Positions 1,920 through 33,349 are shown, counted from the first letter of the stretch. The stretch is DNA of 34,283 nt from Promethearchaeati archaeon (GCA_013166775.1 JABLTJ010000034.1:1-34283), one strand, 5' to 3'. Numbers and translations are program-made. The notes: generated from the sequence alone by a model not told the origin.

Positions 1920-2168
1920 GATTACTATTTTTTGGATTTTCAGAGCAAAAAACATACGATATATTATAAGAAAACCAAAAGAGCAGGTAAATAGTCATTA
2001 GTAAATGATAGAGAATTTACTGCAGAAATTAACTGCAAAAACAATAACCTCAAAAAAATGGATGAATTTAAATTAAAAAGTTTTTTATTTGAAATCGGAA
2101 TAACAAAATCAGATAATTTTAAATCTATAAAAGAATGGTCTATAAATGGGTGCAAAAATGAGAGATGA
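1920..2168 (+). pseudogene. C-terminal half of a split, decayed third GTPase
   Basis: Frame from 1920 reads DYYFLDFQSKKHTIYYKKTKRAGK*SLVNDREFTAEINCKNNNLKKMDEFKLKSFLFEIGITKSDNFKSIKEW..., with TAG at 1992 and TGA at 2166. YYFLD, NDREFTAEIN and ITKSD match MFMVD, QDRFLAAILN and LTKSD of the 11434..12303 GTPase. The G4 region shares 14 identical nt (taacaaaatcagat). Confidence 0.72.
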
Positions 2169-3288
2169 ATGTTTAGAACTGCAGAAACAAGCAGTGAAAT
2201 TGGAGAAAAAGAAATTAACCAAAGAACCATACGAGGTAATAGAAGTTTTTAGGAAATTAGGATTGTGTTACTTTGAACATAAGTATATGTCGTTAGGTTT
2301 TGAAAATTACGTTAAACTACTTCTTCTTATAACCAATCACAAGGAAAGAGAAAAAATAATCTATAATATGAATTTCACCGAGTTAACGGGAATCTTTCAG
2401 AAGATAATCGAGCATTTTGAAAATAATCACAAAGGGTTAAAGAGTACAGAAATAGATTCATTGATTGAATTAGTCCACATTATTTTAGAATATAATAAAG
2501 GGAATATTAAATACGAATTCCTTATCGCAGAGATACTTTATAATTTAACCGATAAAGCATTAGAAAATGGATTAATAGAAAAAGCAGTCTATCAAACAAC
2601 AATAGGAATAATAACCGAATTAGCAGAAGATGTCTTTCTAAGAGGGCAAAAAAGACTTGAGAAAACTGATTTTGTGATAGCACAAGAGTATTTCTCCATG
2701 ACAGCAATATTGTTTCAATTGATAACCGACCCGAAAATGGATTTAGCTTTCAAAGAATGCGCAAAAGCAAACCTCTTACAAGGAAAATATCTTGTTACAA
2801 AGAAAAAATACCTCAAGGGATTGGATGCCTTGATTGCTGCTGTAAAGATCTATCAAGTGATTGAATTATTCGAAGAAAGCGAAAATGGACTAATTATAAT
2901 AAAGAAAGCTTTTAGAGCTGGAATAAATTATTTCGAGGATAATTACAAGAAAGATGATCCTAGACTCAAGAAATTACTTCTCTTTGAGGAAGTATTCAAG
3001 GATTTAGAGAGATCACAGAAAAAAACTAAGCAACAAGGAAAATCTAAAGAGAATATTATAGTAGATAATTTTATGAGAATACCATATCCGAAAACAATGG
3101 AGTTGATAGATGAAAAAGCAACAAAAAATCAATTGGAAAAGGAACTATATACATTAGAACAATCATTAGAGAGTATTAATCATGCTTTTAGGGATGGTCT
3201 TATCAGTTCAGAAGATTATGCAAGATTATTACTTGGGTTAAATAGAAATATCTACAAAGTCAGATCTTTATTGGAGAAAAAAAAATAA
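2146..3288 (+). CDS. TPR/SNAP-like helical solenoid protein with C-terminal steadiness-box-like (Vps23/TSG101 core) hairpin
   Basis: TPR-like segments RKLGLCYFE...ENY and GKYLVTKKKYLKGLDALIAAVKIY. The C-terminal TLEQSLESINHAFRDGLISSEDYARLLLGLNRNIYKVRSLLEK follows the TSG101 SB pattern as recalled. Start may be 2146 or 2158. Confidence 0.62.
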   Translation: MGAKMRDECLELQKQAVKLEKKKLTKEPYEVIEVFRKLGLCYFEHKYMSLGFENYVKLLLLITNHKEREKIIYNMNFTELTGIFQKIIEHFENNHKGLKSTEIDSLIELVHIILEYNKGNIKYEFLIAEILYNLTDKALENGLIEKAVYQTTIGIITELAEDVFLRGQKRLEKTDFVIAQEYFSMTAILFQLITDPKMDLAFKECAKANLLQGKYLVTKKKYLKGLDALIAAVKIYQVIELFEESENGLIIIKKAFRAGINYFEDNYKKDDPRLKKLLLFEEVFKDLERSQKKTKQQGKSKENIIVDNFMRIPYPKTMELIDEKATKNQLEKELYTLEQSLESINHAFRDGLISSEDYARLLLGLNRNIYKVRSLLEKKK

Positions 3289-3311
3289 GTAATTAAAAAT
3301 GTGGAATTTAA

Positions 3312-3896
3312 ATGGTAATTAAATCAGAAAGACCTATACAAAAGGGAGAAATAGAAGCGTTATTAATGCAAATTGACAAATTCAGGAAAAACCATATAAC
3401 TTTCATTAAGAATCAAACAACTAATTTTTTGGAAAATATAAAGACTGATGAACATTCCATTAAGAAATTAATAGAGATTTTTTATGAGGATTATTTGAAA
3501 ATTTCTTTTATTGAACTCATCAATGATAAACCTATATCTATTTCTATAAGAAGAGCAATTAAAAAATTGGATGAACAATCAGAATTATTAAGAAATTACA
3601 TTAAGGATCAATATTTAGATACTAGTAATAAAAAAACTAGAAAATTACTGTATATTTTAAGTTTCAATGTTTATAACTTAAAAGAAGGAATTAAAGAATT
3701 AATAAGAATATCTGATATTTTTAATAAAATATTGAAGAAAATGCAAAAATTATTTCTTGAGAAAAAAGAATCTTTAGCAGGTGAGATTCAAACTTGGTTC
3801 TTTAATTTCAGTAGAGATGTAAGTGAAAGTAAGTTAATTAATCATCGAATTTTAGAAATTCAATATAAAATATTGAAAGAGAATCATAATATCTGA
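3312..3896 (+). CDS. Hypothetical all-helical protein, co-transcribed with 2146..3288
   Basis: 194-aa ORF starting 23 nt after the previous stop, with GTGGA upstream. It converges tightly on the stop of 3901..7224. No motif recognised. Confidence 0.75.
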   Translation: MVIKSERPIQKGEIEALLMQIDKFRKNHITFIKNQTTNFLENIKTDEHSIKKLIEIFYEDYLKISFIELINDKPISISIRRAIKKLDEQSELLRNYIKDQYLDTSNKKTRKLLYILSFNVYNLKEGIKELIRISDIFNKILKKMQKLFLEKKESLAGEIQTWFFNFSRDVSESKLINHRILEIQYKILKENHNI

Positions 3897-3900
3897 TGAA

Positions 3901-6900
3901 TCAAATAGAATCAAACAACTCATCTGATTTTTGAATATTGTTTCTTATAAAATTCCAATAGTATCTAGTAAGAATCTCATTTGAGATATTTTTCATAAAA
4001 TTGTATTGAGTTTCAAAAATATTGATTCCAGCGTTAACCATAGTTTCAAACATGTGATTGATATGTTCTGTTATGAAATAATTATTACCTGTTGAATCAG
4101 AAATAACAATCTTTTTCAATTCTTGTAATAAAGGAATAATTGTCATTAATGAAAATTCTTTTACTGAATTAGGCAAGTTTGAGTTACTAAAAGCAAATGG
4201 AAGAAATGGTTGATTGTTTTTAAGACATTTCTTATATTCTACCTGTTTTGATTTTAGGAATATAATTAATTTCTTTCTAACTAATTCTAAGCTAATATGC
4301 TCTATCTTTCTAGTTTTTGTATCAATAAATATCGGAATAGTTTTCAAATGCTTATTAATGCGCTCATTATCGCTTCTGTTTTCAATTTCATCATTATAGT
4401 AACTATGATAGCTAACAATAAATTCTACTTCAGTAGCTTTTGTTATTTTTTTATTAGTACTAATTGTGAAACGTCTATCAAATGTTGGTTTTTCTAGAAA
4501 ATCTAACCGATCCAAAGAAGTATCTTTAGGATAAATAATTAAATCATTTATATCTGGACTATTGAAATAAAATATCGGATTTTTTAGATAACCTGCTTCA
4601 ACTTTAATGTGGACTTCGATGTTAATTTTATCGTTTACATCTCTTATTGTCGGATAAGGTTCTTGTATGCTACACATAGAAATAATCTTAGGTTCTGATA
4701 AGTCAAGTTCGAACTCGATTATCTTTGTATCAGATTGTTTTCCATGTATAAATGAAACTTGTATTGAAGCCTTCTCTCCAAATTTTTCAGATATAGGAAC
4801 TAACTTGAAATTTTGTTCAATAACTGTTCGATTACTTAGATTGCACTGTTTAAGGTCATCAAGTACTTTCAAATTATTAGTTAATGGTTTGATATATGGT
4901 TTAATTCCTTTAATCTCAACATCATTTTTTCCTATCGTCACACTGACAAGAAATGGTATGCCGAGTTGTGGTTTGTCACCTTTAACTGCTTCATTCTTAA
5001 CTAATTCAATATTATTTATATGGAAAATGGGAATTTTATCCTTTATTTCAACCTCTATTTCTTTTTCAACAAAAACTCCATCAGTTGTCTTTATTATTAA
5101 TGGACCAATTTTACTTTTGCCAATCTTCTTTGGTGTAAAAGATAGATAATCAGTAATTTCTTGTTTCCCGGGTGAGATTTCTCTATTTAGTAACGTTTTA
5201 AAACCAGGTTCATTCGGTACAATATTCTGATCAAGTTTCAGAGTACATTCAATTATAGTTATTTTTCTTACTGGTTTAATATTAATTTGATAATGATAGA
5301 TAAGATCTTTTTCTAAACAGCTATCTTGAACAACTAATGGTCCGCGACTTTGATTAACAATTACTGGAGTAGCAAGTTGTAATAGTGTTGAACATTCAAA
5401 ATCAGGTATTATTAGTTCAGATTTCTTATCGATTTTCTTCTCATCAACAATGATAGAATAGATTAGTGGTAATTTGATATCAAGATTAATAGCAGCAGAT
5501 GTTTCTAGCCATAAATTATATCTAATTGTACTCTTAGGTTTCAATATGTCAATAAGATTCTCCTCTTTACAACCAAGATAAATATCTATGGTATTTTCCT
5601 TCAAAATGGATTCAATTTTATCAAAGTCAAATCTAATATCATAAATATTTGAAGTAGATGGATTGTGTAAATCAAAAGAAAGCCTGAGAGGATAATTAAC
5701 AACTAGGTTTTTACCGAAATCTTTTGAATTGATTATTTTCTCTTTTATAATCTTTAAAAATATCTGATCAAGATTAACCTTTTCTAACTGAATTGCTTTC
5801 TTTTTTTGCAGATCAATGTGGTGTTTTCGTTCAATACTTTTAGTAAAAGCATCATATTTAACACGTAATTTTTCTAGGTTCTTCTTTGTATTCTCTCTCA
5901 TATCAGTACGAGGAATAATTAAATCAATAATATCAATAGAATCCATAATGACTTCTAAATTGATTTGTTCAGCTTCAAATTCATCTTCATAAAAATAGAA
6001 ACAATCCAAAGCGTGAGTAAAGAATAGGTCAATATCATTCATTGTTTTGTTTGCTGAAACAATATATATACTAAGAGTATCATCATCAATAATTTCATAA
6101 TTGGTCTGTACATAAAATGGATAAATCATTATAGATGAGACTTCATCACTGAGAAAATCATCAGTTTCTTGTTGAAAAATAACGATAATGAAAGTTATTC
6201 CAAGTTTATTATATTGATGCGAGAGAATATCAATAGGTTTAAGTTTAAATGAATCATCTACTTGAATTTCTTCTAAAGAGATTAATTCCACATCTTCATC
6301 TGTTAAAAGATTCTTTAAAAGCGAGATTTTACCGATATTCTCAAAATCTCCGATAACTAACGGAGTTGGTTCTTTATTTGTTGATTCATGATGAGTAATA
6401 CTATCCAAAAAATCTTGATTGATTTCCAATTCTTCTTTTGTGAGAGTTTGACCATCATATTTGAAATAAAATACACCATGTAAAGTTTTACTGATTAGAT
6501 GAGCTGTTTTTTTAGAAGCATCAGGTATATAGCAATAGGTTTCTATTATGAAGGAATTCGTTGATACGAGGTCACATTTTAAATTTGATTTGCCATTTTT
6601 GACTTCTAAAATACATACACTCTCGTCACTACATAACAAAATCTCAAAATTATTTTCATCAACTAATGTAATCAGATAACCATCTTCAAGATTTGAGGGA
6701 ATATCTGTACCTATAACCTTTGAAGAATCATAAAGAAGCTTAATCTGATAATTACTTACTGAATCCTTAACAATTTTAAAAATACTAGCTTTATCTCCTA
6801 TTATCAAAGCATATGTTTCCTGGTTGAAATAATAGGTTTTCAATTTGATAGCAAAACTAACAGCATTTGAGTTAATCCGTTCTAGTAATTCAAGCTTCTT

Positions 6901-7224
6901 TCCTACATTATCATATTCATAAAGGGTAATATTGTTATGTTCATCAATAGTTAATAATTCTTCTTGAACGAGTTCTGATAAACGAATGCCAGAAAAAGCT
7001 AGTATTTTATTCTGAAAAGTTCCTAAGATATTTTTTTCAAAACCTTCATTGGATAAGTGGAAAAAACCAATTTCATAATTAGGCCCATCATCATCCTGAA
7101 TGTAAACTAATTCAGGAATAACTCCTCCGCCCTCTAAATCAATTAGATTGAATATCGCTTTACTAAAAGGCAACTCAGATTTTGTTTCTTCCCAATTGAA
7201 TTTCTTTAATATCGTTTTGATCAT
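3901..7224 (-). CDS. Large cytoplasmic protein: N-terminal beta-propeller (degenerate FG-GAP-like), coiled coil, several Ig-like beta-sandwiches, helical C-terminus
   Basis: No signal peptide or TM. Aa ~1-370 are beta-rich with IDLEGGGVIPELVY and LVIGDFENIGKISLL. A coil spans ~440-490. Ig-type patterns follow: VNYPLRLSFDLHNPS...LKPKSTIRYNLWL, SFTPKKIGKSKIGPLII, LGIPFLVSVTI. Confidence 0.55.
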   Translation of the reverse strand: MIKTILKKFNWEETKSELPFSKAIFNLIDLEGGGVIPELVYIQDDDGPNYEIGFFHLSNEGFEKNILGTFQNKILAFSGIRLSELVQEELLTIDEHNNITLYEYDNVGKKLELLERINSNAVSFAIKLKTYYFNQETYALIIGDKASIFKIVKDSVSNYQIKLLYDSSKVIGTDIPSNLEDGYLITLVDENNFEILLCSDESVCILEVKNGKSNLKCDLVSTNSFIIETYCYIPDASKKTAHLISKTLHGVFYFKYDGQTLTKEELEINQDFLDSITHHESTNKEPTPLVIGDFENIGKISLLKNLLTDEDVELISLEEIQVDDSFKLKPIDILSHQYNKLGITFIIVIFQQETDDFLSDEVSSIMIYPFYVQTNYEIIDDDTLSIYIVSANKTMNDIDLFFTHALDCFYFYEDEFEAEQINLEVIMDSIDIIDLIIPRTDMRENTKKNLEKLRVKYDAFTKSIERKHHIDLQKKKAIQLEKVNLDQIFLKIIKEKIINSKDFGKNLVVNYPLRLSFDLHNPSTSNIYDIRFDFDKIESILKENTIDIYLGCKEENLIDILKPKSTIRYNLWLETSAAINLDIKLPLIYSIIVDEKKIDKKSELIIPDFECSTLLQLATPVIVNQSRGPLVVQDSCLEKDLIYHYQINIKPVRKITIIECTLKLDQNIVPNEPGFKTLLNREISPGKQEITDYLSFTPKKIGKSKIGPLIIKTTDGVFVEKEIEVEIKDKIPIFHINNIELVKNEAVKGDKPQLGIPFLVSVTIGKNDVEIKGIKPYIKPLTNNLKVLDDLKQCNLSNRTVIEQNFKLVPISEKFGEKASIQVSFIHGKQSDTKIIEFELDLSEPKIISMCSIQEPYPTIRDVNDKINIEVHIKVEAGYLKNPIFYFNSPDINDLIIYPKDTSLDRLDFLEKPTFDRRFTISTNKKITKATEVEFIVSYHSYYNDEIENRSDNERINKHLKTIPIFIDTKTRKIEHISLELVRKKLIIFLKSKQVEYKKCLKNNQPFLPFAFSNSNLPNSVKEFSLMTIIPLLQELKKIVISDSTGNNYFITEHINHMFETMVNAGINIFETQYNFMKNISNEILTRYYWNFIRNNIQKSDELFDSI

Positions 7225-7242
7225 TAGAGAACGTTCCTAAAT

Positions 7243-10200
7243 TTAATTCGTAGCATAATTACCTCTTAATAATTTTATATCAAACTTTTTCAAGTACTTC
7301 GAAACATGTCTTTCAATATCAGCTGCAATTTTTTTGGAATTTGGATCTACTTTATCACTTTTTAATATACTAATTAATTGATTTTGTAATTTGCTAGAAA
7401 TCTCATAGCTAATATTCTGTGGACATTTTTTAGTACTTATAATTGTAAAAATACGTTTCATATACAATAAATATCCTTCTCTAGTAATTTTCTTATCACC
7501 ACGTAATAAACGGATGTTATTGCTTAGAACTTCAATAAAATTATAATCATCGAAGTCACTCCTCATGGCATTTTTTAGGTATGAATCTAATACTTCTTCA
7601 TAAAATGATATATTCAAATGCTTAATGTCAATATCACCTAACTTCAAAATAGTATTATAGAACACTTTGCTTATCATCGGATTATTCTTGTTAGCTTTAC
7701 CAAGTAATTTGAGTATATCATCTTTATAGACCATAAGAAAGTTCTTTCTGTTAATGCTAGTAACTAAATTATTGTATATTCCAATAATGTTTGAAGAATC
7801 TGCAATTAGATCTACTTTGATATTTGAATGCAAATCGAATAATGAGAATATTAACTCTCTTCTTTTCTTAAGTAATGTACTATACTTTTGTCCTTCACTA
7901 TGAAGAAGGTTTAAGGTTTTTGTAATAACAATATTTAGAATTTCAGATTTGCTTTTGTTACTATATAGATTTGCCAATTTCTTGTTATATTCCATAAGAA
8001 AATCAGTAACCGCATGCACAAAAGAAACATCTTTTATTATTTCTGAATATTTACTTTCAGCTATTAATCTAAATAAACTAAAATAGAGTGTCAAATAATT
8101 AGTTAATGCAGAATCGTTTAGCTTTTTAACATTGGCTATTTTTTCAATGAATGCACAATAGATTTTAGTTTCTTTAGAAATAATACTTAATTGTTTAATC
8201 ATGTTTTCTTTGTATAATTGAGTATATTTACTGTCAAGTTCTTTATCGAGATAGGTCCAGAATATGTCAGTATTAATCTGATTAAATAATACTATTCCTT
8301 TATTGTCCAAGTTGTTTTCAAGAGATCTAAAGAGAGTATAAATTCTAAATTTAGTGCAATTCTTTTTCTCAAGCAATGTTTTATAATCAGCTAAAATTGC
8401 ATAATTTTTCTTAGAATTGTGATAGAATAGTAATAATAATTTCACCCAATCATTAGTTTTCAACCATTCAATTGTAGATTGCTTTGATTCTTGAGTAAAA
8501 CTAGTTATTATTTCAGACCACGCTTCAAGAAGATAAACAGGATTATCCTCTTGTTTTACATAATCACTTACTTCTTCAAAGAATGTTTGTTTTCTACCCT
8601 GCCTTATTGGTAGACCAATCAAAGTAATTTTAGCTTTATTGATAATCATTTCATAAACTTCCGATTTTGGTGTAATTTGCAATATAGGATTAATTAAATC
8701 CAAATTAGCTGATTTCCGAGCAGCATTAAGTAATGAATCAAGAAGAATAATCAAATCTTTATCAACTAGAGAAACAATTTTTGGATTGTTAGTATATTTT
8801 GCATGAATATTATTTAATAGCTCTCCATAAAACATTCTTAATTCTTCATTTTGATTTGCAAAAATGGTTTTACTTCGAGTCAAAGTTAGTTCAATATTAC
8901 TAATATCCAAATGGCTAATGATGAAATTCTTATGATTATTTATTTTCGCTAGTTTGTTGTAATATTTTAAGCTACTTGATAATGCTATGAAATAAAGATT
9001 CATTGCTTCATACTTTACTGTTGTTAAATTAGCAAGGGAGAATAATAAATTAATAACTTTTGGCAGTTGATTTGGAGATTTTTGTGCAAGAGGATAAAGT
9101 GTCTCTTTGACAAATACTGTAATATCTGTTTTAATTCTTGTAGAATAATTACTTTCTTCAATTTTGTTAAACAATAATTCTAATTCATCTTGTCGACCAT
9201 CAACTCCAGAATAAACATATGCAAAGAAAATTCTAAATAACTCATGAGTTAATTTTTCTAGTTTTTCATTTTCCGCATGTAAATTATGAGCATTTGATAG
9301 AGATTCTGCGATAATGTCTAATTGCTTATCTTGAATTTCAGCACTCTCTAATGCAATACCAAATGGAGCTTTGAGTAAAAAGTCGAAATAAATAGGCAAT
9401 TGGTTTATAAAATGATGACCATCATAATTAAGTGCTCCAGTTACTGTTTTATTATATGAAGAATTGTACCACTTAATTTCATCATCAAACTTATTTGAAA
9501 TAATAATTGCTTGGTAGTTTTCTAATTCCTCAAATAACCTGGAGTAGTATTCTAAACTTGGGGTAGTTTCAACGAGTACAAGTAATTTTTCTATGATTTG
9601 TCTACTTTCAAGTGATTTAGCAATATCAGATACTTTAACTCTAAATCGGTCTTTTGGTAACGTTTTGCGAAATTTAAGAATAACCTTATCTAAGGAAGTA
9701 TTTAATGAAAGGAGATCTTCAAGAGAATTACTCTCTAAATATTCAATAATAGAATTAGCTAGATAATTATCTAAGGTTATATCTTCCTCTCCGACGATTT
9801 TATTGCCATTTGAATCTAAAATAATTGTATTAGGCATTATTTTTGCTGATTTTACACAAGAACGAGGTGTAAAAATTAAGTTAAAATCTGGTTTTGATAA
9901 TGTATTATAAGGGTTTGTTTGTAAGAAAGGATCATAAAAGAAAGTAGCTAAACGAATTAAACAACGAACAGATTTAGGAATTATTTTGTAAAGTGTTTGT
10001 AATTCAGTGAGAGGTTGAGTATCTTTATACAAAACAATAATCGTTTTACCTGATAAAACTCCAGTTATTATCTTCTGAATAAGAATTAAAGAGAATTTCT
10101 GTTTTAAATACTGTATTGCGGTTTGTTCTACTATAGCTTTAGTTTTCAATGAAGCTAAAACAAAATTAGTAAAATCAGCATCAGCGAAATCATTACGGGT

Positions 10201-10569
10201 AAACACTTCAGCAGCATTTAAGAGCAAAGGATCAAAGCCAATGGCTTCAAATTCACTATCAGAGAGAATGATTGTATGGGTTTGAGTACGTCCAGGGCGT
10301 CCATCATAATTTCTACCAGCATCCATTAAACGACCAATTGCTACTCTACTCTCATCCAATTGATAACAATAAATAGTATCAGTTACCTCAATACGACAAA
10401 GTACATTCCGATAGGGGTTAACTCCGAAAGAATAATAAAGAATTTTCAATTTATCCTGATTACTTATTCCAGATGGTGATAAACTTGTTATTTGTTGGCC
10501 TGCTTTTGATTGAGTTTTTGCTGAAGTGTATAGCAAATGAGGCACTTTAAAATTACTCTTTTCAGACAT
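7243..10569 (-). CDS. GAP1-N2 / DENN-like N-terminal region followed by a long alpha-solenoid; putative GTPase regulator
   Basis: N-terminal LLYTS...GQQITSLSPSG...GRNYDGRPGRTQTHTIIL matches the GAP1-N2 pattern (YTS..G.Q...SPG...G.D..GR.G....H). IQKIITGVLSGKTIIVL...LYKIIP...NLIFTP...IILDSNGNKI resembles a central DENN domain. The rest is helical. The gene lies directly downstream of two GTPases. Confidence 0.68.
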   Translation of the reverse strand: MSEKSNFKVPHLLYTSAKTQSKAGQQITSLSPSGISNQDKLKILYYSFGVNPYRNVLCRIEVTDTIYCYQLDESRVAIGRLMDAGRNYDGRPGRTQTHTIILSDSEFEAIGFDPLLLNAAEVFTRNDFADADFTNFVLASLKTKAIVEQTAIQYLKQKFSLILIQKIITGVLSGKTIIVLYKDTQPLTELQTLYKIIPKSVRCLIRLATFFYDPFLQTNPYNTLSKPDFNLIFTPRSCVKSAKIMPNTIILDSNGNKIVGEEDITLDNYLANSIIEYLESNSLEDLLSLNTSLDKVILKFRKTLPKDRFRVKVSDIAKSLESRQIIEKLLVLVETTPSLEYYSRLFEELENYQAIIISNKFDDEIKWYNSSYNKTVTGALNYDGHHFINQLPIYFDFLLKAPFGIALESAEIQDKQLDIIAESLSNAHNLHAENEKLEKLTHELFRIFFAYVYSGVDGRQDELELLFNKIEESNYSTRIKTDITVFVKETLYPLAQKSPNQLPKVINLLFSLANLTTVKYEAMNLYFIALSSSLKYYNKLAKINNHKNFIISHLDISNIELTLTRSKTIFANQNEELRMFYGELLNNIHAKYTNNPKIVSLVDKDLIILLDSLLNAARKSANLDLINPILQITPKSEVYEMIINKAKITLIGLPIRQGRKQTFFEEVSDYVKQEDNPVYLLEAWSEIITSFTQESKQSTIEWLKTNDWVKLLLLFYHNSKKNYAILADYKTLLEKKNCTKFRIYTLFRSLENNLDNKGIVLFNQINTDIFWTYLDKELDSKYTQLYKENMIKQLSIISKETKIYCAFIEKIANVKKLNDSALTNYLTLYFSLFRLIAESKYSEIIKDVSFVHAVTDFLMEYNKKLANLYSNKSKSEILNIVITKTLNLLHSEGQKYSTLLKKRRELIFSLFDLHSNIKVDLIADSSNIIGIYNNLVTSINRKNFLMVYKDDILKLLGKANKNNPMISKVFYNTILKLGDIDIKHLNISFYEEVLDSYLKNAMRSDFDDYNFIEVLSNNIRLLRGDKKITREGYLLYMKRIFTIISTKKCPQNISYEISSKLQNQLISILKSDKVDPNSKKIAADIERHVSKYLKKFDIKLLRGNYATN

Positions 10570-10626
10570 TTGTTTCCCTCATAACTATTTTCCGTTTATA
10601 GTTTATTTTAATTACCTATGATATAC

Positions 10627-11421
10627 CTATTTATCAAGAAAGAACCTTAAGGGTTCTAGAACATTTATTGGTCTTATATTTTCTTTCATTGGATATTGCC
10701 TTGTTTCTGCATTATAGCCCAATGATGATATAGGAATACATTTGAAATTATTTTTGAAATTAATTTCTAGATATTTGTAAGTAAAAGGCATTTTTTGTTC
10801 TACGAATTCCCTTGCATCCGGAATATCTATCAAATCAGATTTTGAGATACAAAAAGCAATTTTAATTCCTTCAACAATACCATACCTTTTATCTTTTTGA
10901 GATTTTCTTTTGCCTTTATTCTTCTTAATTATCCGCAGGATAATCGTAAACATTGTATCTTGATCATCGAAAGTAGAACCTATTGGGTTAGGATCAACTA
11001 ATAAAATGAAGCAATCTCCAGTATATAGCATATTCATAATTTTCTTTTGACTTTCTTTAAATTCAGGAGGTATTATTGATTTTCTTATTTGGGAATGAAA
11101 TCTAGCATCAAATATTATATTAATATCTTCGCCGGATAAATCATAAGTAGAGATTAGTGCTGCAGTTTTTACTTTACCATCTTCTTGATAAGATAATTTC
11201 ATGTTTAACTCTTTGAATTGTCTTTCAGGAGTAGAAAAAGTACTTCCTTGTAACACTAAATCTTCGAGAACCATCGAAAGATAATCCATTGAATCAGCAT
11301 GATCTCTCATGTCTAAAATGTAATTTTCAAATCCATATCTGTCAATTTCTCCAAATAAAACTGACAAATAAACTGTTTTACCGGCTTGAGGAATACCAAA
11401 GATTCTAACTCTTCTATCCAT
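10627..11421 (-). CDS. TRAFAC-class GTPase B (double-GTPase / DO-GTPase-like)
   Basis: G1 GIPQAGKT, G2 Thr (FST), G3 DLSGE, ILLVDP, G4 SKSD, G5 SSLG, C-terminal PINVLEPL. Confidence 0.9.
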   Translation of the reverse strand: MDRRVRIFGIPQAGKTVYLSVLFGEIDRYGFENYILDMRDHADSMDYLSMVLEDLVLQGSTFSTPERQFKELNMKLSYQEDGKVKTAALISTYDLSGEDINIIFDARFHSQIRKSIIPPEFKESQKKIMNMLYTGDCFILLVDPNPIGSTFDDQDTMFTIILRIIKKNKGKRKSQKDKRYGIVEGIKIAFCISKSDLIDIPDAREFVEQKMPFTYKYLEINFKNNFKCIPISSLGYNAETRQYPMKENIRPINVLEPLRFFLDK

Positions 11422-11433
11422 TGAAAATCACTA

Positions 11434-12303
11434 TTAACGTCTATTACGATAATCTGCAAATTGTTTTTTGAACCATTTTAAAGGTTCATCAATATTTTCT
11501 GGTTGTATAATATCCGGTACAATAGCATATTTACTACCATCTTCTGCTGTTTCGTTTTTAGTATTATATCCCAGAGAGGTAATATAAAACGATTTGACTC
11601 TGTCTTTTACGAAATAAAGTTTTTTAGCTCGCTTCCATGATTGTGGGATTAATTTGTTTAATTCTCTCTCTGTATGTTGATTATTATAATATAAATCTGA
11701 TTTTGTTAAAACAAAAGCTATTGAAACGTTTTCTATAACACTATTAGATTTCAAACGATTCTTCTTTTGATTAGTATCAATGATTTGATTCAAAATTGCA
11801 GCTAAAAAACGATCTTGTTTATGCCTACCAATAGGATTCGGATCAACCATAAACATAAATGATGAGGATTCCTCAATTAATGAATTGATTGTTTTTTTCA
11901 TATTTATAAATTCAGAAGGTTTATTTTCATCAGGAATATTTTCGTTAGGAATTTCTACAATTTGATTATTGGATAAGTCAAGGTTTGGAGCGAAAATATC
12001 TAATAAAGTATCTCCTCCAAAATCATAGGTTTCCATTCTAAATACAGTTTCTACAGTATTTTTTACTTGTCTACTCAAGTTAAATGCTACTTTACGAATA
12101 GATCGTCTATCAGTCATTTCTGGTAATACTTTTTTTTCATATAAATCTTGAGCAATACCACTAAGGTAAGCTTCCGAATCCTCTTCGTTTTTAAAATCCA
12201 AAACAAGTTCTGCTTTTAGTTTATTGAGATATTCATATAATACAACGAGATAAACCGTTTTACCAGAACTAGTGGTACCAAATAAACCTACTTTATTATT
12301 CAT
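11434..12303 (-). CDS. TRAFAC-class GTPase A (double-GTPase / DO-GTPase-like), paralog of GTPase B
   Basis: G1 GTTSSGKT, G2 Thr (PEMT), G3 DFGG, MFMVDPNPIG (VDPNPIG shared with B), G4 TKSD, G5 TSLG, PENIDEPLKW. Confidence 0.9.
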   Translation of the reverse strand: MNNKVGLFGTTSSGKTVYLVVLYEYLNKLKAELVLDFKNEEDSEAYLSGIAQDLYEKKVLPEMTDRRSIRKVAFNLSRQVKNTVETVFRMETYDFGGDTLLDIFAPNLDLSNNQIVEIPNENIPDENKPSEFINMKKTINSLIEESSSFMFMVDPNPIGRHKQDRFLAAILNQIIDTNQKKNRLKSNSVIENVSIAFVLTKSDLYYNNQHTERELNKLIPQSWKRAKKLYFVKDRVKSFYITSLGYNTKNETAEDGSKYAIVPDIIQPENIDEPLKWFKKQFADYRNRR

Positions 12304-12474: not shown

Positions 12475-13086
12475 GTGAACAAATTTTTTGAGTTCTTTAA
12501 AAGAAAGAAATTTTCAATTGATGATTTAGAAGAAATGAAAGAAGATATACAAGAATATCAAATGAATCTGCGCAGCGGGCTTAGAGAGAATAAAGCAAAA
12601 TTAAAACGTATTATTAAGAAAGGTAGAACTCCATCACCAATGGCTGTTATGAGGTACAAAAAAGTACAATTGATGGACAAGCAAGTAGGTGGACTAATTG
12701 ATACAATTGATGGTATGATGTTTGAAGTAGAATTTCAAGAAGCAATAGCTTCTATACGAACTATATCAACAGATCTCTATGAGTCATTAAATATGTTCAA
12801 TTTTTTTAAAGAAGTAGATAAACGCATGAAAGAAGTCATGAATGTTCAAGTAAATTACACTAAAAATATGGATAAAGAAGTGAAGAAACAAGAATTTTGG
12901 CTAGAAAATCTCGAAGAAAAAACCGAAGATCAGAGAATCGAATTAGAAGAAGAATTTGATTATTTGGGAGATGAGTTACTAGTTGAATTTATTATGGAAG
13001 ACAAAAAGCTAGTTGAAGAATTACCAAATGAGGTAAAAGAAAAACCAATAGTGAAACAAGTAATAATGATGCTTGAAAAAGGATAA
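12475..13086 (+). CDS. ESCRT-III/Snf7-like protein 1
   Basis: 203 aa, GTG start. N-terminal amphipathic FFEFFKRKK, basic helical hairpin then acidic half, ELP-containing tail with terminal helix (MIM-like). Two genes upstream of the MIT-AAA ATPase. Confidence 0.68.
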   Translation: MNKFFEFFKRKKFSIDDLEEMKEDIQEYQMNLRSGLRENKAKLKRIIKKGRTPSPMAVMRYKKVQLMDKQVGGLIDTIDGMMFEVEFQEAIASIRTISTDLYESLNMFNFFKEVDKRMKEVMNVQVNYTKNMDKEVKKQEFWLENLEEKTEDQRIELEEEFDYLGDELLVEFIMEDKKLVEELPNEVKEKPIVKQVIMMLEKG

Positions 13087-13143
13087 AGATTTTAAATTAA
13101 AAAAAACGATGTTTACAAAGTTATTTAACAAGGAGGTTTATAA

Positions 13144-13716
13144 TTGAAGTTTTTTAAGCAAAAAAAATCAATTGAAAAACAAATGAAAGAAGTCGATGAA
13201 GCACGAGATGAAGTACAAGATAGATTGTACAATGTCAATTCAAGATGCAATACCTTGAAAAATGAAATCAAACGTGATTTTAAGAAAGGAAAGAATCCTT
13301 CACCAGCTAAGAAAATGAATTACAAACGAGCACAAATTATCCGTGATGTAACGCAGGGATTATATGATACCTTAGATGGTATCTATGGTGAACTCGAGAT
13401 GGCTGAGGACTTTAAGGATCTCAGAATTGACAAACTATCAAGTATGGTCACTAAATATGATAAAGTGTTTAAAACAAATAATGCTTTTCTAAAAGATTTA
13501 TTCAAGTTGCAAGAAAAACAATTGGGCAAAGTTAAAAGTATTATTGATAAACAACACTTTCAATTAGAAAATCTTGAGGAATTAGCATCAGATTACGATG
13601 TTGAAATAACTGATGATATTACTATAGATATACTACAAGAATTCTCTGGAGAAGACAAGGAATTCGAAAAAGAACTTCCAGATAAATTCAAGAAAGCATT
13701 AGAGAGACGAAAATAA
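13144..13716 (+). CDS. ESCRT-III/Snf7-like protein 2, paralog of protein 1
   Basis: 190 aa, TTG start with GGAGGT RBS. Starts MKFFKQKKS. KGKNPSPAKKMNYKR...GLYDTLDG aligns with KGRTPSPMAVMRYKK...GLIDTIDG, and KQHFQLENLEE with KQEFWLENLEE. Ends in an ELP tail. Confidence 0.68.
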   Translation: MKFFKQKKSIEKQMKEVDEARDEVQDRLYNVNSRCNTLKNEIKRDFKKGKNPSPAKKMNYKRAQIIRDVTQGLYDTLDGIYGELEMAEDFKDLRIDKLSSMVTKYDKVFKTNNAFLKDLFKLQEKQLGKVKSIIDKQHFQLENLEELASDYDVEITDDITIDILQEFSGEDKEFEKELPDKFKKALERRK

Positions 13717-13744
13717 TCAGTTTGACTTTCATGAGGTTTATACA

Positions 13745-14899
13745 TTGACTGAATTTGATAAAGCTAAAATGTTTAAAGATAAGGGAAATAAAGCAGCAAA
13801 AGAAGGGAAATTCGAAGAAGCAAAGAAATACTATCTTGAATCAATAAAATATCTTACAATTTTACGAAATCGAACGAAACCTCCAATAAGTAATAATTAT
13901 CAAATGATGATAGATGCTGTTGCTAATCTAATCAATAAGCTAAAAGATAAGAAGGAAAAGGTTGGGAAGAAACCTGGTAAACCATATATAGGTAAAATCA
14001 AGATTCCAATTAACCTACCTGAAAATTGCAAAGATTTAATTATTCTAACAAATCGTGATTTTGATGATATAGCTGGATTAGATGACCTCAAAAGTACCTT
14101 GAAAAAAACAATAGAATATCCATTGAAATATCCAGATAAAGTGGACAAATGGGGATTCGAAGGTGAAACAGGAATTTTAATGCATGGCCCACCCGGTTGT
14201 GGTAAAACTTTCCTAATAGAGTGTACTGGTGGAGAATTTGGTGTACCAATTATCTCACTAACACCTGATTGCGTTATGGATAAATATGTTGGAGAATCAG
14301 CAAAAGCAATTAAAGAAACATATAAATGTGCTAGTTTTTTAGCACCAGCAATTGTCTTTTTGGATGAGATAGAAAGAATGCTATTTAGTAGTGACAGTTC
14401 TGGAGTTAATGCTCAAGTTACGAGTCAAATAATGCAACAATTATCCGGAATAACAGGAACAGCACTAGTTTCATCTGAAACACCAATAATAACAATAGCT
14501 GCCTCAAATCATCCATGGAAAATTGATGCGGCATTGATTAGAAGAGGACGCTTAGGAAAAATAATCTATGTACCTCCACCAGACAAGAAAGCAAGGAAAA
14601 AACTTTTTGAAATTTATATTGGAGATTATCCCCACGAAAAAGGCATTGATTTTGATAAATTATCTGAATTAACAAGTCCGGATAAATCTAGTGGATGGCA
14701 ATATTCTGCAGCAGATATTAGTCATATCTGTAAAGAAGCAAGAAACGAAGCATTTGAATTGGATAAAGAAGGACATTCGAATATAACAATCACAGAAGAA
14801 ATGCTGAGAAAGCATATTAGGAAAACAAATCGAAGTATTTCACCAAAACAAATTAAAGATTATAACGATTGGGAAAATAGATCAAATGAAAGCATGTAG
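13745..14899 (+). CDS. MIT-domain single-cassette AAA+ ATPase, Vps4/CdvC-like
   Basis: N-terminal MIT-like three-helix unit (AKMFKDKGNKAAKEGKFEEAKKYYLESIKYL). FDDIAGLDDLK, Walker A GPPGCGKT, pore loop DKYVGES, Walker B IVFLDE, AASNHPWKIDAAL, YSAADI, and a Vps4-type terminal helix RSISPKQIKDYNDW. Confidence 0.85.
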   Translation: MTEFDKAKMFKDKGNKAAKEGKFEEAKKYYLESIKYLTILRNRTKPPISNNYQMMIDAVANLINKLKDKKEKVGKKPGKPYIGKIKIPINLPENCKDLIILTNRDFDDIAGLDDLKSTLKKTIEYPLKYPDKVDKWGFEGETGILMHGPPGCGKTFLIECTGGEFGVPIISLTPDCVMDKYVGESAKAIKETYKCASFLAPAIVFLDEIERMLFSSDSSGVNAQVTSQIMQQLSGITGTALVSSETPIITIAASNHPWKIDAALIRRGRLGKIIYVPPPDKKARKKLFEIYIGDYPHEKGIDFDKLSELTSPDKSSGWQYSAADISHICKEARNEAFELDKEGHSNITITEEMLRKHIRKTNRSISPKQIKDYNDWENRSNESM

Positions 14900-30400: not shown

Positions 30401-32754
30401 TCCTTTGCACCGGTATTATCAAGACAATAGACATAACCGTTATCACAACCAAAAACAATTTCCAGAACGCTATCTTGATCAATATCAAAAATACAAGGTG
30501 AAGTGCTTATATCTGCTGTAACCGGATAATTCCATTCTTCTGTCCCAGTGCTTGATATGCATTGTAATTTATTCAAGGCAGAACCAATAATTATTTCTTG
30601 TTGATTGTCATTATCAATATCTTCTATTGCTGGATTTGAAGCAATATATCCTCCTAACCCTACGTTCCATAAATCATTGCCAGTATAATCCAAGCAATAC
30701 ATATACCCAGATTCTGTCATCACAATTGTCTCGAGATAGTCATCACTGGTAATATTTGCTACTGAAGGTGAACATGAAAATCCAGATGCACTAAAGAAAT
30801 CCCATTTGTAAGTACCATCATAATTAAGACAGTAAATGTACCCATCCAAAGAACCGAAGATTATTTCGAAATAACCGTTACTATCAATATCTGCTACACA
30901 AGGCGAGGAGTATAATATTTGATCTCCTGTATTGTAATCCCATTCGTAATTACCAGTATGATCTATACAATAGAAATTACTATTATCAGCACCGAATAAT
31001 ATCTCCAATGTGCCATCTTTATCCAAATCTGCAACTGCAACTGAGGAGGTAATCTCAAAACCAACATTATAACTCCAAAGGGTAGTCCCAGTACCATTTA
31101 TGCAATACAATCTGTTATTGAATGGGAGTAAGATCTCATTCTTACCATCAAGATTGATATCAACAGCAGTTGGCGAAGCTTTTACATTTGAAGTTGTTGT
31201 CCTTGAATATCTTAAGGAGATACCCATCTCACCTTCTTCTTCTGGACCGGTGTAGGGAAAGTCTAACGGATCATTTGGATCCGAACCAAAATCAATCTCA
31301 ATCCAATCAGAATAGGTATCTCCATCCGAATCAGCATCATTTGGATCCGTTTCGTAATAGTAAAGTTCAACCCAATCCTTGAGATTATCAGAATCTGAAT
31401 CATCACTATTAGGATTGGTATTATAGAACCATTCTTCTGTTACATCGTCTATTGAATCACTGTCAGAATCAATGACTGCGTTATTTGTATTGCTTCCTCT
31501 AAAGGAGCCATAATAGACTTCGCCAGATTGCGTGACATCAGTTAGCTCCCAACAATAGACTTTCTGATCAGTATTACAACCGATTATTTCTAAAATACCA
31601 TCCCCTTCAAGGTCAACTACTGTTGGAGTATCAATAAAAAAACCATTCCCACAAAGATACTCAAATTCTAAACCACCTGTATGATTTATACAAACTAATT
31701 TATTGGCTTCATTACCGGTTATGATTTCAAAATCATTATCATCATCTATGTCAGCTATAACAGCAGAGGACATAGTATCACTCATAGAATATAACCAATC
31801 AGTAGAACCAGTATGAGTTAAGCAATACAAGCCATTACCAGTCCCAATAATAATTTCCTTTTGATTATCATCATCAATATCAACTACCACAGGTGAACCA
31901 TCTACTATACCAGTTGTGCCGTCTAAATCTCTCATCCATTCTAATGAGCCTGTTCGACTAATACAATAGACATCATCTGCTCCACCAACAATAACTTCTT
32001 TTGCACCATCTTTGTCAACGTCATTAATTATTGGAGAGGAATATTCCGTGCTTGATATGGCGTATTCCCACTGTTTTGCTCCAGTATGACTTAAGCAGTA
32101 AAGCTTATTATTGAAACTTACAAATACAACTTCTAAATATCCGTCATTATCTAAATCATCAATTGCAGGTGAACTCGCTATGGGTCCACCTGAATTAAAT
32201 GGTGACGACCAATCCTCATTACCATTTTTGTCTAAGCAATATAGATTATTATCTGCTGACCCTACTAAAATCTCCAACTCACCATCTTGATCAATATCAG
32301 CTATTGTTGGTGTCCCATCAATATTGCCACCTGTATCATACTGCCATAAAAATGCTCCATCTACATCATAGCATTCTATGTCATCACCTACACCAGTAAT
32401 TATCTCAAGATAACCATCATTAGTAATATCTGCAATAGCAGGTGTTGAGAGATCTGTTCCCCCAAGAGCTTGGGTCCAACGAAGAGTACCAATCGCATTA
32501 AAGCAAAATAGATTGTTGTTTCCATGTACAATTATTTCCATTTCGCCATCTTTATCTAAATCAGCTGTTTTTGGTGAATTGGTTAATGAATCTGTTGCCG
32601 AGACATCAAATGACCATCGTAGTGATATTCCTACAGCTTTGATTTCCATATCTTGAGGATCATTATCAAGTCCCCCTTCAACTTCAAGAATTAACGAAAT
32701 GCTTGAGATAACTAGCAAACCTACAAATATTATTGAGACTGCTCTTCCCTTCAA
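27424..32754 (-). CDS. Type I membrane surface protein: two tandem FG-GAP/PQQ-like beta-propellers, long TSP3-like stalk, TM, cytoplasmic wH + helical tail
   Basis: Two propeller units, each beginning GISLR(W/Y)S and ending in a F(R/K)GS...(N/H) closure followed by D.D.D repeats. TM YSIITAIGIFVVLTLVLTI. Paralog of 20508..24917. Confidence 0.9.
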   Translation of the reverse strand: MKGRAVSIIFVGLLVISSISLILEVEGGLDNDPQDMEIKAVGISLRWSFDVSATDSLTNSPKTADLDKDGEMEIIVHGNNNLFCFNAIGTLRWTQALGGTDLSTPAIADITNDGYLEIITGVGDDIECYDVDGAFLWQYDTGGNIDGTPTIADIDQDGELEILVGSADNNLYCLDKNGNEDWSSPFNSGGPIASSPAIDDLDNDGYLEVVFVSFNNKLYCLSHTGAKQWEYAISSTEYSSPIINDVDKDGAKEVIVGGADDVYCISRTGSLEWMRDLDGTTGIVDGSPVVVDIDDDNQKEIIIGTGNGLYCLTHTGSTDWLYSMSDTMSSAVIADIDDDNDFEIITGNEANKLVCINHTGGLEFEYLCGNGFFIDTPTVVDLEGDGILEIIGCNTDQKVYCWELTDVTQSGEVYYGSFRGSNTNNAVIDSDSDSIDDVTEEWFYNTNPNSDDSDSDNLKDWVELYYYETDPNDADSDGDTYSDWIEIDFGSDPNDPLDFPYTGPEEEGEMGISLRYSRTTTSNVKASPTAVDINLDGKNEILLPFNNRLYCINGTGTTLWSYNVGFEITSSVAVADLDKDGTLEILFGADNSNFYCIDHTGNYEWDYNTGDQILYSSPCVADIDSNGYFEIIFGSLDGYIYCLNYDGTYKWDFFSASGFSCSPSVANITSDDYLETIVMTESGYMYCLDYTGNDLWNVGLGGYIASNPAIEDIDNDNQQEIIIGSALNKLQCISSTGTEEWNYPVTADISTSPCIFDIDQDSVLEIVFGCDNGYVYCLDNTGAKEWDYYLSSTFISSSPTIADLNNDGKYEVVIGSRDTKLYCLSYNGTLLWSYLTGDIAAAACLADLDNDGILEVTVGTETGMFYILELTNVTLSGGSPWSCFKGSIFHTGWKDTDFDGIDDLTEQTYFGTNHTDSDYDNDLLNDWGEVYFAGSDPYDNDSDSDHLLDGEEVHLYLTDPMDSDSDEDTYSDWEEIDADSDPNDPLSIPSPDTDGDGLRDNKESELGTNPNDPDSDDDNLTDGEEYYTYLTDPLDSDTDNDNLDDYEEVFLGVDNYITNATNPDSDFDGLNDGAELTYSTDPWDVDSDGDTIWDGEEVILGVNGWITDPADSDSDGDNLADNYEIDVSHTSPVDDDTDSDGLDDNEEIVPGIDGYITLANDSDSDNDQLLDGEELFYLTDPWDIDCDNDTLLDGIEVHTYFTEPLNNDTDSDLISDGEEVILGVDGWITNATNPDSDGDGYTDYYEIYISFTNPIDNDSDQDGLTDDEEMTLGIDGFLTDPNLNDTDNDYLNDYQEYLEGTNPLVNDTDNDQLLDGLEIITYETDPFDDDTDDDSLLDGEEILGYYQPLNPYSNLTGYFVTNATNADSDSDGINDFEEITLGSDGFYTNPNSADSDGDSLSDLDEINTHLTDPTTIDADSDTMPDDFEVNHNLDPNSNDTADDYDSDELTNLEEYLLGTEPDNFDSDNDSMPDGWEQNNGLDPLDNSDASEDDDFDGLTNLEEYTEGTNPQNSDTDSDLLPDKWEVDQGTYATIPDANADYDSDDLTNYEEYQNNTDPYDDDSDDDQLTDGQEVNVYGTNPNAEDSDYDGFTDKAEIDAGTDPLDSKDNPRSKNIKTYSIITAIGIFVVLTLVLTIRGVVKHNSKSIVIIKRYLKRKQLVKNEMPIDDICDELNISPTDMRLLLEELQNKKKFSYHIKDQLVYFYNEETIKQILNRIELLLVRYRKASEADVALDHLVDAKTEVEAAQAFAQELGDINLINRCQKVEDEINSIVRK

Positions 32755-32815
32755 AAGTAAGACATCCTATAATTGATCTCTACTATTCAAATTAACTTCC
32801 ATACTAAATTAATTT

Positions 32816-32855
32816 TATCCAAATTTGGATACAAAAACTTGAAAGGGATTAATCC
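32816..32855. promoter_or_regulatory. Palindromic candidate operators in a divergent promoter
   Basis: Perfect 16-bp palindrome tatccaaatttggata (32816..32831) and 10-bp ggattaatcc (32846..32855), followed by TATA-like ttataaat. Confidence 0.4.
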
Positions 32856-32917
32856 TTATAAATTAATTTGAGTGATTTATCTGTAAATGATTAATATTAA
32901 ATTATTTTGGGATTTGA

Positions 32918-33349
32918 ATGAAAACTGAAATACTAGCCGTTGGAAAGCATGCTGTAGGAAGAATGGTTTATTTAATGGCACTTTTTCAGGAATTAAATCG
33001 GAGCTATTATAGTGACTTAGTACTCGATACAACTAACGATAAATTGAAACAACTGTATAATTTATTAGCTGATTTATAAAAAAAACAAGATTGGCCTTTA
33101 GCTACAGACTATAGATCTTTTCGTGGTCATAACTTCAATTTATGTAAAAGTGAAAAGGATAAGATAAAAATTGTAGCCAATTCCATCTTCTTCTATTTAA
33201 CAAGTGAGATGTATATGGAAAGGTTTTCTACAATAAATGCCAAAAAAGGGTATTATGATATACCAGATGAAATAATAATTGAAAATGATAAAGATGATAG
33301 TATAAAATTTATTTATAAATTTACAGATAAATTAGTAGATCAAAATGCT
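32918..33349 (+). pseudogene. N-terminal half of a split, decayed third GTPase
   Basis: ATG 32918 gives MKTEILAVGKHAVGRMVYLMALFQELN...DLVLD...DL*KKQDWPLATDYRSFRGHNFNL...YLTSE...KLVDQNA, with TAA at 33077. It aligns with GTPase A GTTSSGKTVYLVVLYEYLN...ELVLD...DLYEKKVLPEMTDRRSIRKVAFNL...DFGGD...SLIEESS. Confidence 0.85.

Follow-up and report, generated by a model that had tools for sequence, protein, structure and literature searches.

Which system is encoded on contig JABLTJ010000034.1 of the Promethearchaeati archaeon assembly GCA_013166775.1, where genes reminiscent of the ESCRT-III/Vps4 membrane machinery lie head-to-head with a pair of GTPases and beside giant surface proteins? The window analyzed here is this whole contig (C110; 34,283 bases), one of 115 contigs of a 3.85-Mb assembly estimated to be 88.7% complete, and the island in question spans positions 1,920 to 33,349. 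The closest public relatives of the window's proteins are labelled Asgard, Lokiarchaeota and Odinarchaeota. An earlier interpretation of the DNA (the sequence-only reading) had proposed a ubiquitin-independent pathway that joins surface receptors, a GTPase switch and ESCRT scission. We give somewhat better than even chances to a related interpretation, in which the island is one functionally linked, Asgard-specific accessory system whose DO-GTPase/GAP1 switch controls a second, divergent ESCRT-III-like machine. Genes are designated A to T in their order along the window; genomes, loci and families in the Genome Taxonomy Database (GTDB) are given our own handles (G, L and f numbers) where they need to be told apart.

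The core of the predicted machine is formed by H (12475..13086, plus strand, 203 aa) and its paralog I (13144..13716, plus strand, 190 aa), which share 32% identity (BLASTP 7e-23). We compared a 20-sequence alignment of the H/I family (A2) with 52 canonical Asgard Snf7 sequences from 30 loci using hhalign and obtained a probability of 95.4% (E 1.7e-8, score 59.5, 108 columns), with the alignment beginning at residue 1 and keeping register across alpha1, the loop and alpha2. Control scores were far lower, reaching at most 18.7 for 20 column-shuffled Snf7 alignments, 19.9 for the reversed alignment and about 22 for the families of the neighbouring helical proteins K and L. The relationship persisted after removal of residues 1-24 (89% probability, E 2e-6) and when only the 15 distant H/I members were compared with Snf7 (95.9% probability). 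In genomes without an H/I member (G015, G036, G054 and G039), the weak matches yielded by a genome-wide search with the H/I profile are to canonical Snf7 genes, and the profile also matches one canonical Snf7 at 1e-9. Proteins of the family combine a basic N-terminal half with an acidic C-terminal half, as in ESCRT-III, and begin with 'M..FFKRKK' or 'MG.L..FGRK', resembling canonical ESCRT-III proteins; at the C-terminus, a conserved motif of their own ('[DE]DPEF..LP.E.K') takes the place of the MIT-interacting motif MIM1. An AlphaFold2 model of H is all-helical (mean confidence, pLDDT, 73), with helices at residues 15-48, 55-97, 107-148 and 151-175, including a 34+43-residue hairpin. The Pfam Snf7 model (PF03357) gives no match to any of the 20 sequences of the family at E up to 1, and genome-wide it finds the two canonical genes only. 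A profile search of 1.84 billion protein representatives recovered only 18 H/I members of ~190-205 aa, the named ones all from Asgard archaea. A feature search of the ESM Atlas with H returned unnamed clusters only, of which the rank-21 cluster, with Snf7 in 16% of its members, is a lead only. Taken together, these comparisons make membership of H and I in the ESCRT-III superfamily very probable.

Directly downstream, J (13745..14899, plus strand, 384 aa) encodes an MIT-AAA ATPase that is Vps4-like but forms a clade of its own (Pfam AAA 5e-28; Walker A and B intact). A profile of its first 85 residues (A5) matches the MIT domains of Sulfolobus Vps4/CdvC (2v6y, 4.1e-6; 4lcb, 1.2e-5; 2w2u, 8.6e-5) over the whole three-helix domain, and the MIT domains of katanin and spartin were matched as well. 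J is 30% identical, end to end, to the canonical Vps4 of the same genome, and its best NCBIfam model is CdvC, matched over the full length (3.3e-51, 174 bits; model cut-off 650); Pfam Vps4_C does not match J. A maximum-likelihood tree places 12 J-type proteins in a separate clade (support 100/100), apart from 32 canonical Asgard Vps4 proteins (100/99) and from Cdc48-D2/PAN; as the AAA tree has no independent root, it does not by itself make J and Vps4 sisters. Makarova et al. 2024 (PMC11188069) reported three fast-evolving Hodarchaeota (Heimdall-group) Vps4 paralogs that fall outside the main Asgard Vps4 clade and occur in genomes that also hold canonical Vps4. J behaves in the tree as these divergent paralogs do, and they may be J-type proteins whose ESCRT-III-like neighbours went unrecognized. 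A co-fold of the J MIT domain (A5) with the C-terminal 54 residues of H (A2) scored 0.27 (mark 0.32), which gives no verdict either way.

The genome also carries a complete canonical ESCRT locus (G000:C1:273800-277200; L015:7810-11170), comprising two Snf7 genes (204 and 217 aa), a Vps4 of 387 aa with both MIT and Vps4_C, and an ESCRT-II subunit; the island is therefore an additional system. The order and sizes of H, I and J (203/190/384 aa) mirror those of canonical Snf7, Snf7 and Vps4 (204/217/387 aa). As in Asgard and eukaryotic ESCRT-III-Vps4 and in crenarchaeal CdvB/CdvC, two ~200-aa Snf7-type paralogs are followed by a ~385-aa MIT-AAA protein, the charge asymmetry and the hydrophobic-basic N-terminal motif are kept, and the MIT domain is recognizable by sequence. 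Unlike in canonical ESCRT, H and I lie below all Pfam Snf7 thresholds and have an unrelated C-terminal half, J belongs to a separate clade with a classic-AAA arginine-finger context, and GTPases and a protease are coupled to the machine. ESCRT-I, ESCRT-II and ubiquitin genes are all absent from the window.

The protease is M (16439..18187, plus strand), a cytoplasmic S8 subtilase with a 160-aa C-terminal extension (Peptidase_S8, PF00082, 4.6e-59, 200.5 bits). Its Asp/His/Ser triad is intact in translation (VDSGVD, HGTHVAG, GTSMATPH), and hydropathy analysis revealed neither a hydrophobic N-terminus nor a signal sequence. The two enzymes named in the sequence-only reading, an MIT-AAA ATPase and a subtilase, are thus confirmed, the former by Pfam AAA together with solved archaeal Vps4 MIT domains and the latter by the Peptidase_S8 model. 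An AAA ATPase and an S8 serine protease in one operon also make up IetAS (IteA/IteS), a two-gene bacterial system without MIT, ESCRT-III-like proteins or GTPases that acts as a protease-toxin/ATPase-antitoxin pair with antiphage activity, its mechanism being unknown (PMC13069673). PADLOC matched J to IetA (2.2e-23) and M to IetS (3.2e-22), while its remaining models gave nothing. Among NCBIfam models, J reached 72 bits with IteA (cut-off 510) versus 174 bits with CdvC, and M 51.5 bits with IteS (cut-off 900) versus 107 bits with mycosin. Because CdvC and mycosin outscore IteA and IteS, these matches reflect family-level similarity, and orthology of J and M to IetA and IetS, whose model cut-offs both proteins miss by far, was rejected.

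On the opposite strand, the island encodes the components of a putative switch. F (10627..11421, minus strand) is a DO-GTPase of the type 1 profile (PF19975, DO-GTPase1, 2.7e-11, 43.7 bits), and its adjacent paralog G (11434..12303, minus strand) matches both PF19993 (DO-GTPase2, 3.1e-8, 34 bits) and PF19975 (1.6e-6, 28 bits), the Pfam gathering cut-off being 27 bits for either model. In an alignment of F, G and six orthologs (A3), the P-loop G..GK[TS] and Walker B D..GE are invariant in all eight sequences, and (S/T)KxD and SSLG are kept; F and G thereby retain the Walker B glutamate (DxxGE) that is the signature of the DO-GTPases, a family of TRAFAC GTPases that frequently come as a pair of paralogs (PMC7159879). 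N-terminal zinc ribbons, which are frequent but not obligatory (60% of the family), are absent from both proteins, whose P-loop starts as early as residue 8. E (7243..10569, minus strand, 1108 aa) is a GAP1-N2 family protein that scores 22.9 bits (9e-5), just below the cut-off of 24 bits, with orthologs at 24.9 bits in L008 (2.3e-5, above the cut-off) and 23.3 bits in L111 (6.9e-5). GAP1-M was detected in the L111 relative only (2.7e-4, 21.6 bits), GAP1-C was not detected, and a profile search of Protein Data Bank (PDB) sequences with E found nothing. The order G-F-E fits the family description, in which GAP1 is encoded downstream of the GTPases (PMC7159879). The place of the variable third component, immediately following GAP1, is taken by D (3901..7224, minus strand), a cytoplasmic partner of 1107 aa with orthologs in L008 (63% identity) and L011 (37%). 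D matches nothing in Pfam or, by profile search, among PDB sequences, and weak FG-GAP repeats appear only in its positional analogs in L109 and L111. The positional analog in a Lokiarchaeota metagenome-assembled genome (L016:529-4524, minus strand; G206, GCA_014729055.1) ends in a PLDc_2 domain of the nuclease/phospholipase type (4.6e-16), typical of conflict-system effectors. Both GTPases exceed their Pfam cut-offs with conserved motifs, and the GAP1 identity of E, suspected from the beginning, gains from its L008 ortholog and from GAP1-M in a relative.

The closest known counterparts of these components are the GAP1-N2-type, DO-GTPase-centric ternary systems defined by Kaur, Burroughs, Iyer & Aravind, eLife 2020 (PMC7159879). 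Shared features are two paralogous DO-GTPases with the Walker B glutamate, a downstream GAP1 with a probable N2-type N-terminal domain, a large non-enzymatic partner gene after GAP1, membrane-associated components, a patchy distribution and variable linked genes whose products assemble into multimers, as is predicted for the island too. All systems described so far come from bacteria, have partners with FNIII repeats and are linked to tubulin, HSP70/GrpE or kinase/PP2C themes (PMC7159879); ESCRT, Snf7 and Vps4 are nowhere mentioned in that paper. Unlike them, the island has an Asgard host, GTPases without zinc ribbons, no FNIII domain detectable by sequence and ESCRT-III-like/MIT-AAA/subtilase as its linked theme. 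The sequence-only reading knew of no account of such a combination, and we found no published description of GTPase/GAP1 together with ESCRT-III-like/AAA genes in full-text literature searches or in a 2025 review.

If the two arms belong together, their linkage should recur, and it does. The synteny of twelve genes, B to M, is preserved in metagenome contigs (L008-L010), where the H ortholog is 70% identical, and in an NCBI Asgard metagenome-assembled genome and Logan contigs (L011-L014; 49%). In the Lokiarchaeota genome G206 (L016), two GTPases, GAP1 and the PLD-bearing partner stand head-to-head with two H-like genes, an AAA and a K-type gene. In G359, three GTPases, GAP1, a 973-aa protein, an H-like gene and an AAA gene lie nearly all on one strand, with only a 337-aa open reading frame opposite, and in G016 a GTPase, GAP1, a 980-aa protein and an S8 fragment occupy one contig while an H-like gene and an AAA gene occupy another. 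The pairing of GTPases with the core thus persists despite rearrangement in four or more GTDB families (f1, f28, f25 and f9), and the GTPase/GAP1 genes adjoin the H-like/AAA pair in two distinct arrangements. We conclude from these neighbourhoods that the linkage is not due to chance; absence of the combination elsewhere would have refuted the sequence-only reading by its own criterion.

The core also occurs by itself. An H-like/AAA core without GTPases, accompanied by genes of K2 (the family of positional analogs of K), L-like, B-like and S8 type, is found in L017/L018 and L019, and in family f19 it forms a conserved operon of about ten genes with neither GTPase nor protease (L082-L085). All five f19 genomes (G021, G032, G051, G078 and G100; 75-83% complete) carry this core, and none of the five has a Pfam Snf7 match or an MIT-bearing canonical Vps4. 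The H-like/J-like pair may be the sole ESCRT-III-like machinery of f19, where it seemingly replaces canonical ESCRT. Overall, strong matches to the H/I family are confined to about 12 of 399 Asgard species genomes, and the 30 other genomes of the window's own GTDB family, 24 of them from the same genus, have none. Of the pathway proposed at the outset, the linkage of GTPase and ESCRT-like parts stands, while the GTPase arm proves not to be obligatory.

Downstream of the enzymes, three giant or large surface proteins are encoded on the minus strand: Q (20508..24917, 1469 aa; FG-GAP propeller and TSP3; transmembrane helix at 1300-1327), R (25170..27233, 687 aa; LVIVD and TSP3) and S (27424..32754, 1776 aa; several beta-propellers and TSP3). 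Each has an N-terminal hydrophobic segment, a single C-terminal transmembrane helix and a cytoplasmic tail of ~135-140 aa. These tails are homologous to one another and to residues 55-194 of P (19745..20329, plus strand), a soluble protein with two winged helices and a three-helix bundle; the tail domain, which occupies residues ~55-194 of P, consists of one winged helix plus the three-helix bundle, and its hidden Markov model (HMM) matches Q at 1e-41. When all six-frame open reading frames of the genome were searched with this HMM, only Q, R, S and P were found. Among the 399 Asgard genomes, full-length tail matches occur only in G000 (the genome studied here), G173 and G206, in every case beside the module, with one weaker match in G183. 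In G173, the domain sits on a polytopic membrane protein with ~11 transmembrane helices (L011:18160-20613, plus strand) and its three-helix part is duplicated, which makes the tail a portable module carried by different membrane anchors. Giant propeller/TSP3 proteins are neighbours of the module not only here but also in L008, L016, L019 and L087; the one beside the GTPase-less L019 module has a tail of only 33 aa, so the tail domain tracks the GTPase-containing variant. The receptor coupling of the sequence-only reading thereby gains comparative support from an island-specific domain, and its four membrane proteins with a common tail become three single-pass proteins and the soluble P.

The AlphaFold2 model of P (pLDDT 85) is built of a winged helix, a linker helix, a second winged helix and the three-helix bundle. 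Foldseek ranked UFL1/DDRGK1 winged-helix arrays best (E 1.2e-3), with SelB, PCI and ESCRT-II winged helices lower, and a profile search of PDB sequences with the tail domain returned nothing. The three-helix bundle resembles MIT in shape only (Z ~10, equal to many generic bundles). Two other candidate identities of the tail were rejected: an MIT-like tail is not claimed, as hhalign found no match to the J MIT profile, and a homotypic adaptor in the style of EAD domains found no counterpart in B, C, D, E, K, L or M. In L019 (L019:6970-16393; G118, GCA_016840065.1), the H-like/AAA/.../S8 operon lies directly behind genes for ThiF (E1), a UFC1-type E2 and JAB. Together with the UFL1-like P, this neighbourhood suggests a possible connection with a UFM1-like modifier system, and the label 'ubiquitin-independent' attached to the pathway is unsafe in view of both.

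Several further genes were assigned to the island. B (2146..3288, plus strand) encodes a helical protein of 380 aa with orthologs in L008 and L011 and a weak EAD11 match (0.01). Its C-terminal 60-aa hairpin (residues 320-378) is common to a 344-aa protein inside the L019 operon (jackhmmer 5e-22) and was probably what the sequence-only reading took for a steadiness box; Pfam Vps23_core matches only the L019 relative, below threshold (E 0.013). C (3312..3896, plus strand), a helical protein of 194 aa, likewise has orthologs in L008 and L011 and no Pfam match. K (14911..15552, plus strand) is a 213-aa helical protein with an acidic C-terminus and orthologs in L008, L011 and L086, and L (15612..16421, plus strand), of 269 aa, has an ortholog in both L008 and L011; when L was combined into one profile with the analogs of like size (269-274 aa) that occupy its position in L017/L018/L019, a match in L086 was obtained as well. 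Of the two to three ESCRT-III-like genes initially counted, H and I remain. K as a third was dropped: it reached 1.5-5% probability against Snf7 by hhalign, a feature search of the Atlas with K gave nothing, and comparisons of the K, K2, L and f19 'X19' families with Snf7 or H/I were all non-significant. Between the subtilase and P, hydropathy places two small membrane proteins with four and three transmembrane helices, N and O (18722..19582, plus strand), which are absent from the relatives L008, L011 and L016.

The layout of the island is compact. G, F, E and D are tightly spaced on the minus strand, with B and C on the plus strand at the far side of this arm; a divergent gap of 171 bp separates G from H, and H to M follow on the plus strand, each 11-59 bp from the next. 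Downstream of M come N and O, then P and the giant minus-strand genes Q, R and S (20508-32754). A head-to-head arrangement had been described by the sequence-only reading, as had an island bounded by repeats, and both descriptions hold: a direct repeat of 472 bp (88.3% identity; blastn and repeat search) brackets the whole island, with its left copy at 1450..1919, covering the 5' end of gene A and the region upstream, and its right copy at 33350..33820, containing the truncated gene T (33340-33714, minus strand). Gene A (513-1673) has a weak WS/DGAT_C match, and it is its first ~75 codons and upstream region that are duplicated as T. The right copy is abutted by a decayed third DO-GTPase paralog (32918..33367, plus strand), which the A3 profile matches at 6e-15; a single TAA interrupts its reading frame, and its P-loop is degenerate. 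The G+C content is 28.9% in the island core versus 32.9% genome-wide. Pfam scans of the window's proteins revealed no integrase on the contig, and the left flank has no DNA match in any of 24 congeneric genomes; a mobile-element origin of the island is thus unsupported.

A number of results weigh against a GTPase-controlled ESCRT-III-like machine. In H and I, the C-terminal half gives no Snf7 signal in hhalign and canonical MIM1 was not found there, and HMM-versus-sequence searches within this genome do not cross-detect H/I and Snf7. With the H model as query, Foldseek found nothing in the PDB at E <= 0.001, an ESM Atlas shape search gave no match, and a VIA search ranked BAR-like and three-helix bundles (Z ~10) above CHMP1B (Z 7.7) and Ist1 (Z 7.6). 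J lies outside the Vps4 clade, its second region of homology carries the classic-AAA 'ALIRxGR', and it could be a general unfoldase that feeds the protease. Concerning the linkage, the GTPase-linked J proteins form one subclade of the tree, so their co-occurrence in four families may trace to one origin; the GTPase arm is missing from several H/AAA variants and is in that sense an add-on rather than part of the core; and the presence of the core in five of five f19 genomes without canonical ESCRT fits a housekeeping role better than a role in conflict. For the two genes at 12475 and 13144 that were first called ESCRT-III, what stands is the homology over the N-terminal hairpin, while the fold searches do not discriminate and the C-terminal half stays without signal.

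Some of these results would also be expected if H and I were generic coiled coils with a compositional similarity to Snf7 and the module were a regulated AAA-unfoldase/protease unrelated to membrane remodelling, an explanation that we consider highly improbable. It would account for the failure of Pfam Snf7 to match either protein, for the non-discriminating fold searches, for the classic-AAA motifs of J and for the search of PDB sequences with the H/I profile, which returned only coiled-coil noise. It does not account for a profile-profile probability of 95% that shuffled, reversed and same-composition helical neighbour families fail to approach, nor for an alignment in register from residue 1 across alpha1, loop and alpha2. 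J, moreover, has a real MIT domain, a domain dedicated to reading ESCRT-III tails, and the gene order parallels that of the canonical locus.

The resemblance to GAP1-N2 systems raises another possibility, which we regard as unlikely but worth taking seriously, namely that the island encodes primarily a Kaur-Aravind-type system for conflict or for defence against viruses. Sensor and switch would then be the GAP1-N2/DO-GTPase pair; the AAA ATPase and S8 protease would work as an IetAS-like pair of protease toxin and restraining ATPase; H and I would be polymerizing effectors that damage or seal the membrane abortively; and Q, R and S would serve as decoys or sensors for virus attachment. GAP1-N2 systems have been described as conflict systems with effectors that form multimeric assemblies (PMC7159879), and the PADLOC matches of J and M connect the module to antiphage IetAS (PMC13069673). 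The patchy, island-like distribution, the PLD domain fused to the D-position protein in L016 and the decayed GTPase paralog at the island edge point the same way. Set against this are the better scores of J and M with CdvC and mycosin models, which leave the IetAS similarity at family level, the silence of all other PADLOC models and the retention of the core in all five f19 genomes, which lack canonical ESCRT.

The situation in f19 is more in line with a housekeeping function, as envisaged by the sequence-only reading: a second ESCRT pathway that builds or turns over giant surface proteins via vesicle release, protrusions or cell-cell contacts, with the GTPases as a trafficking switch. The giant propeller/TSP3 proteins that adjoin the module and the exclusivity of the tail domain to the island within the genome agree with such a pathway, as does the apparent reliance of f19 on the H-like/AAA core alone. 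We nevertheless hold it to be improbable, since the module was not found in any of the 30 other genomes searched in the same family and close relatives with giant surface proteins of their own can do without it, since a canonical ESCRT locus is already present in the genome, and since the giants beside GTPase-less variants lack the tail domain (L019 with its 33 aa). A broader evolutionary proposal can be made, if only tentatively, as an unlikely but not negligible possibility: the H-like/MIT-AAA core would be an ancient, Asgard-restricted third ESCRT-III/Vps4 branch that replaced the canonical system in f19 and elsewhere became wired to a Ras-superfamily-like GTPase switch and dedicated surface receptors.

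For the interpretation that we favour, a linked accessory system in which GTPases control a divergent ESCRT-III-like machine, the components suggest the following sequence of events. F and G, with the GAP1-N2 scaffold E and the large partner D, would constitute a nucleotide-dependent switch controlling H, I and J. As Snf7-type hairpins with a basic-hydrophobic N-terminal membrane motif, H and I would polymerize on the cytoplasmic face of the membrane, and J, possibly by binding their tails through its MIT domain, would remodel or disassemble the polymers. The cytoplasmic subtilase M might cut one of the components, either making a step irreversible or activating it. The tail of Q, R, S and P would be dedicated to the system and flag the site, or the trigger, of the machine's action. 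This scheme builds on results of the comparisons above, namely the gene identities, the homology of H and I to Snf7, the conserved linkage and the exclusive tail; the succession of steps, the polymerization, the binding of tails by MIT, the substrate of the protease and the physiological effect are inferred. The outcome might be a regulated response of the cell envelope, such as membrane shedding, repair or, in a conflict setting, abortive damage, which we favour over housekeeping trafficking. That the system is of accessory character is indicated by its comparative context, a rare, repeat-bounded island with a decayed extra GTPase, a PLD-fused D analog and matches to IetA and IetS. We read the module as a GTPase-gated ESCRT-III-like membrane-remodelling system with the hallmarks of conflict systems; it can be framed as a GAP1-N2 system with an ESCRT-III-like/MIT-AAA/protease theme or, equally, as a third, GTPase-wired ESCRT-III/Vps4 branch.

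No known organisms are closer to eukaryotes than the Asgard archaea, whose ESCRT genes occupy a key place in hypotheses on the origin of internal membranes. Our analysis suggests that one strongly diverged branch of the Asgard ESCRT-III/Vps4 genes escapes detection by standard models, and that this branch recurrently occurs together with a GTPase switch for which only bacterial conflict systems had been described. GTPase-conflict systems would thereby extend to archaea, with ESCRT-III polymers as a fourth theme beside tubulin, HSP70 and kinases; should the island serve in defence, it would be the first such system to use ESCRT-III-type polymers. A tail that is private to the system and carried by giant surface proteins offers a concrete, testable pairing of receptor and membrane machine, and if the GTPases gate ESCRT-III-like assembly, the island would provide a simple model for switch-controlled membrane scission. 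If the core is indeed a third branch, a prokaryote would combine receptor, GTPase switch and ESCRT-type scission, the logic of eukaryotic membrane trafficking, in parts not previously seen together.

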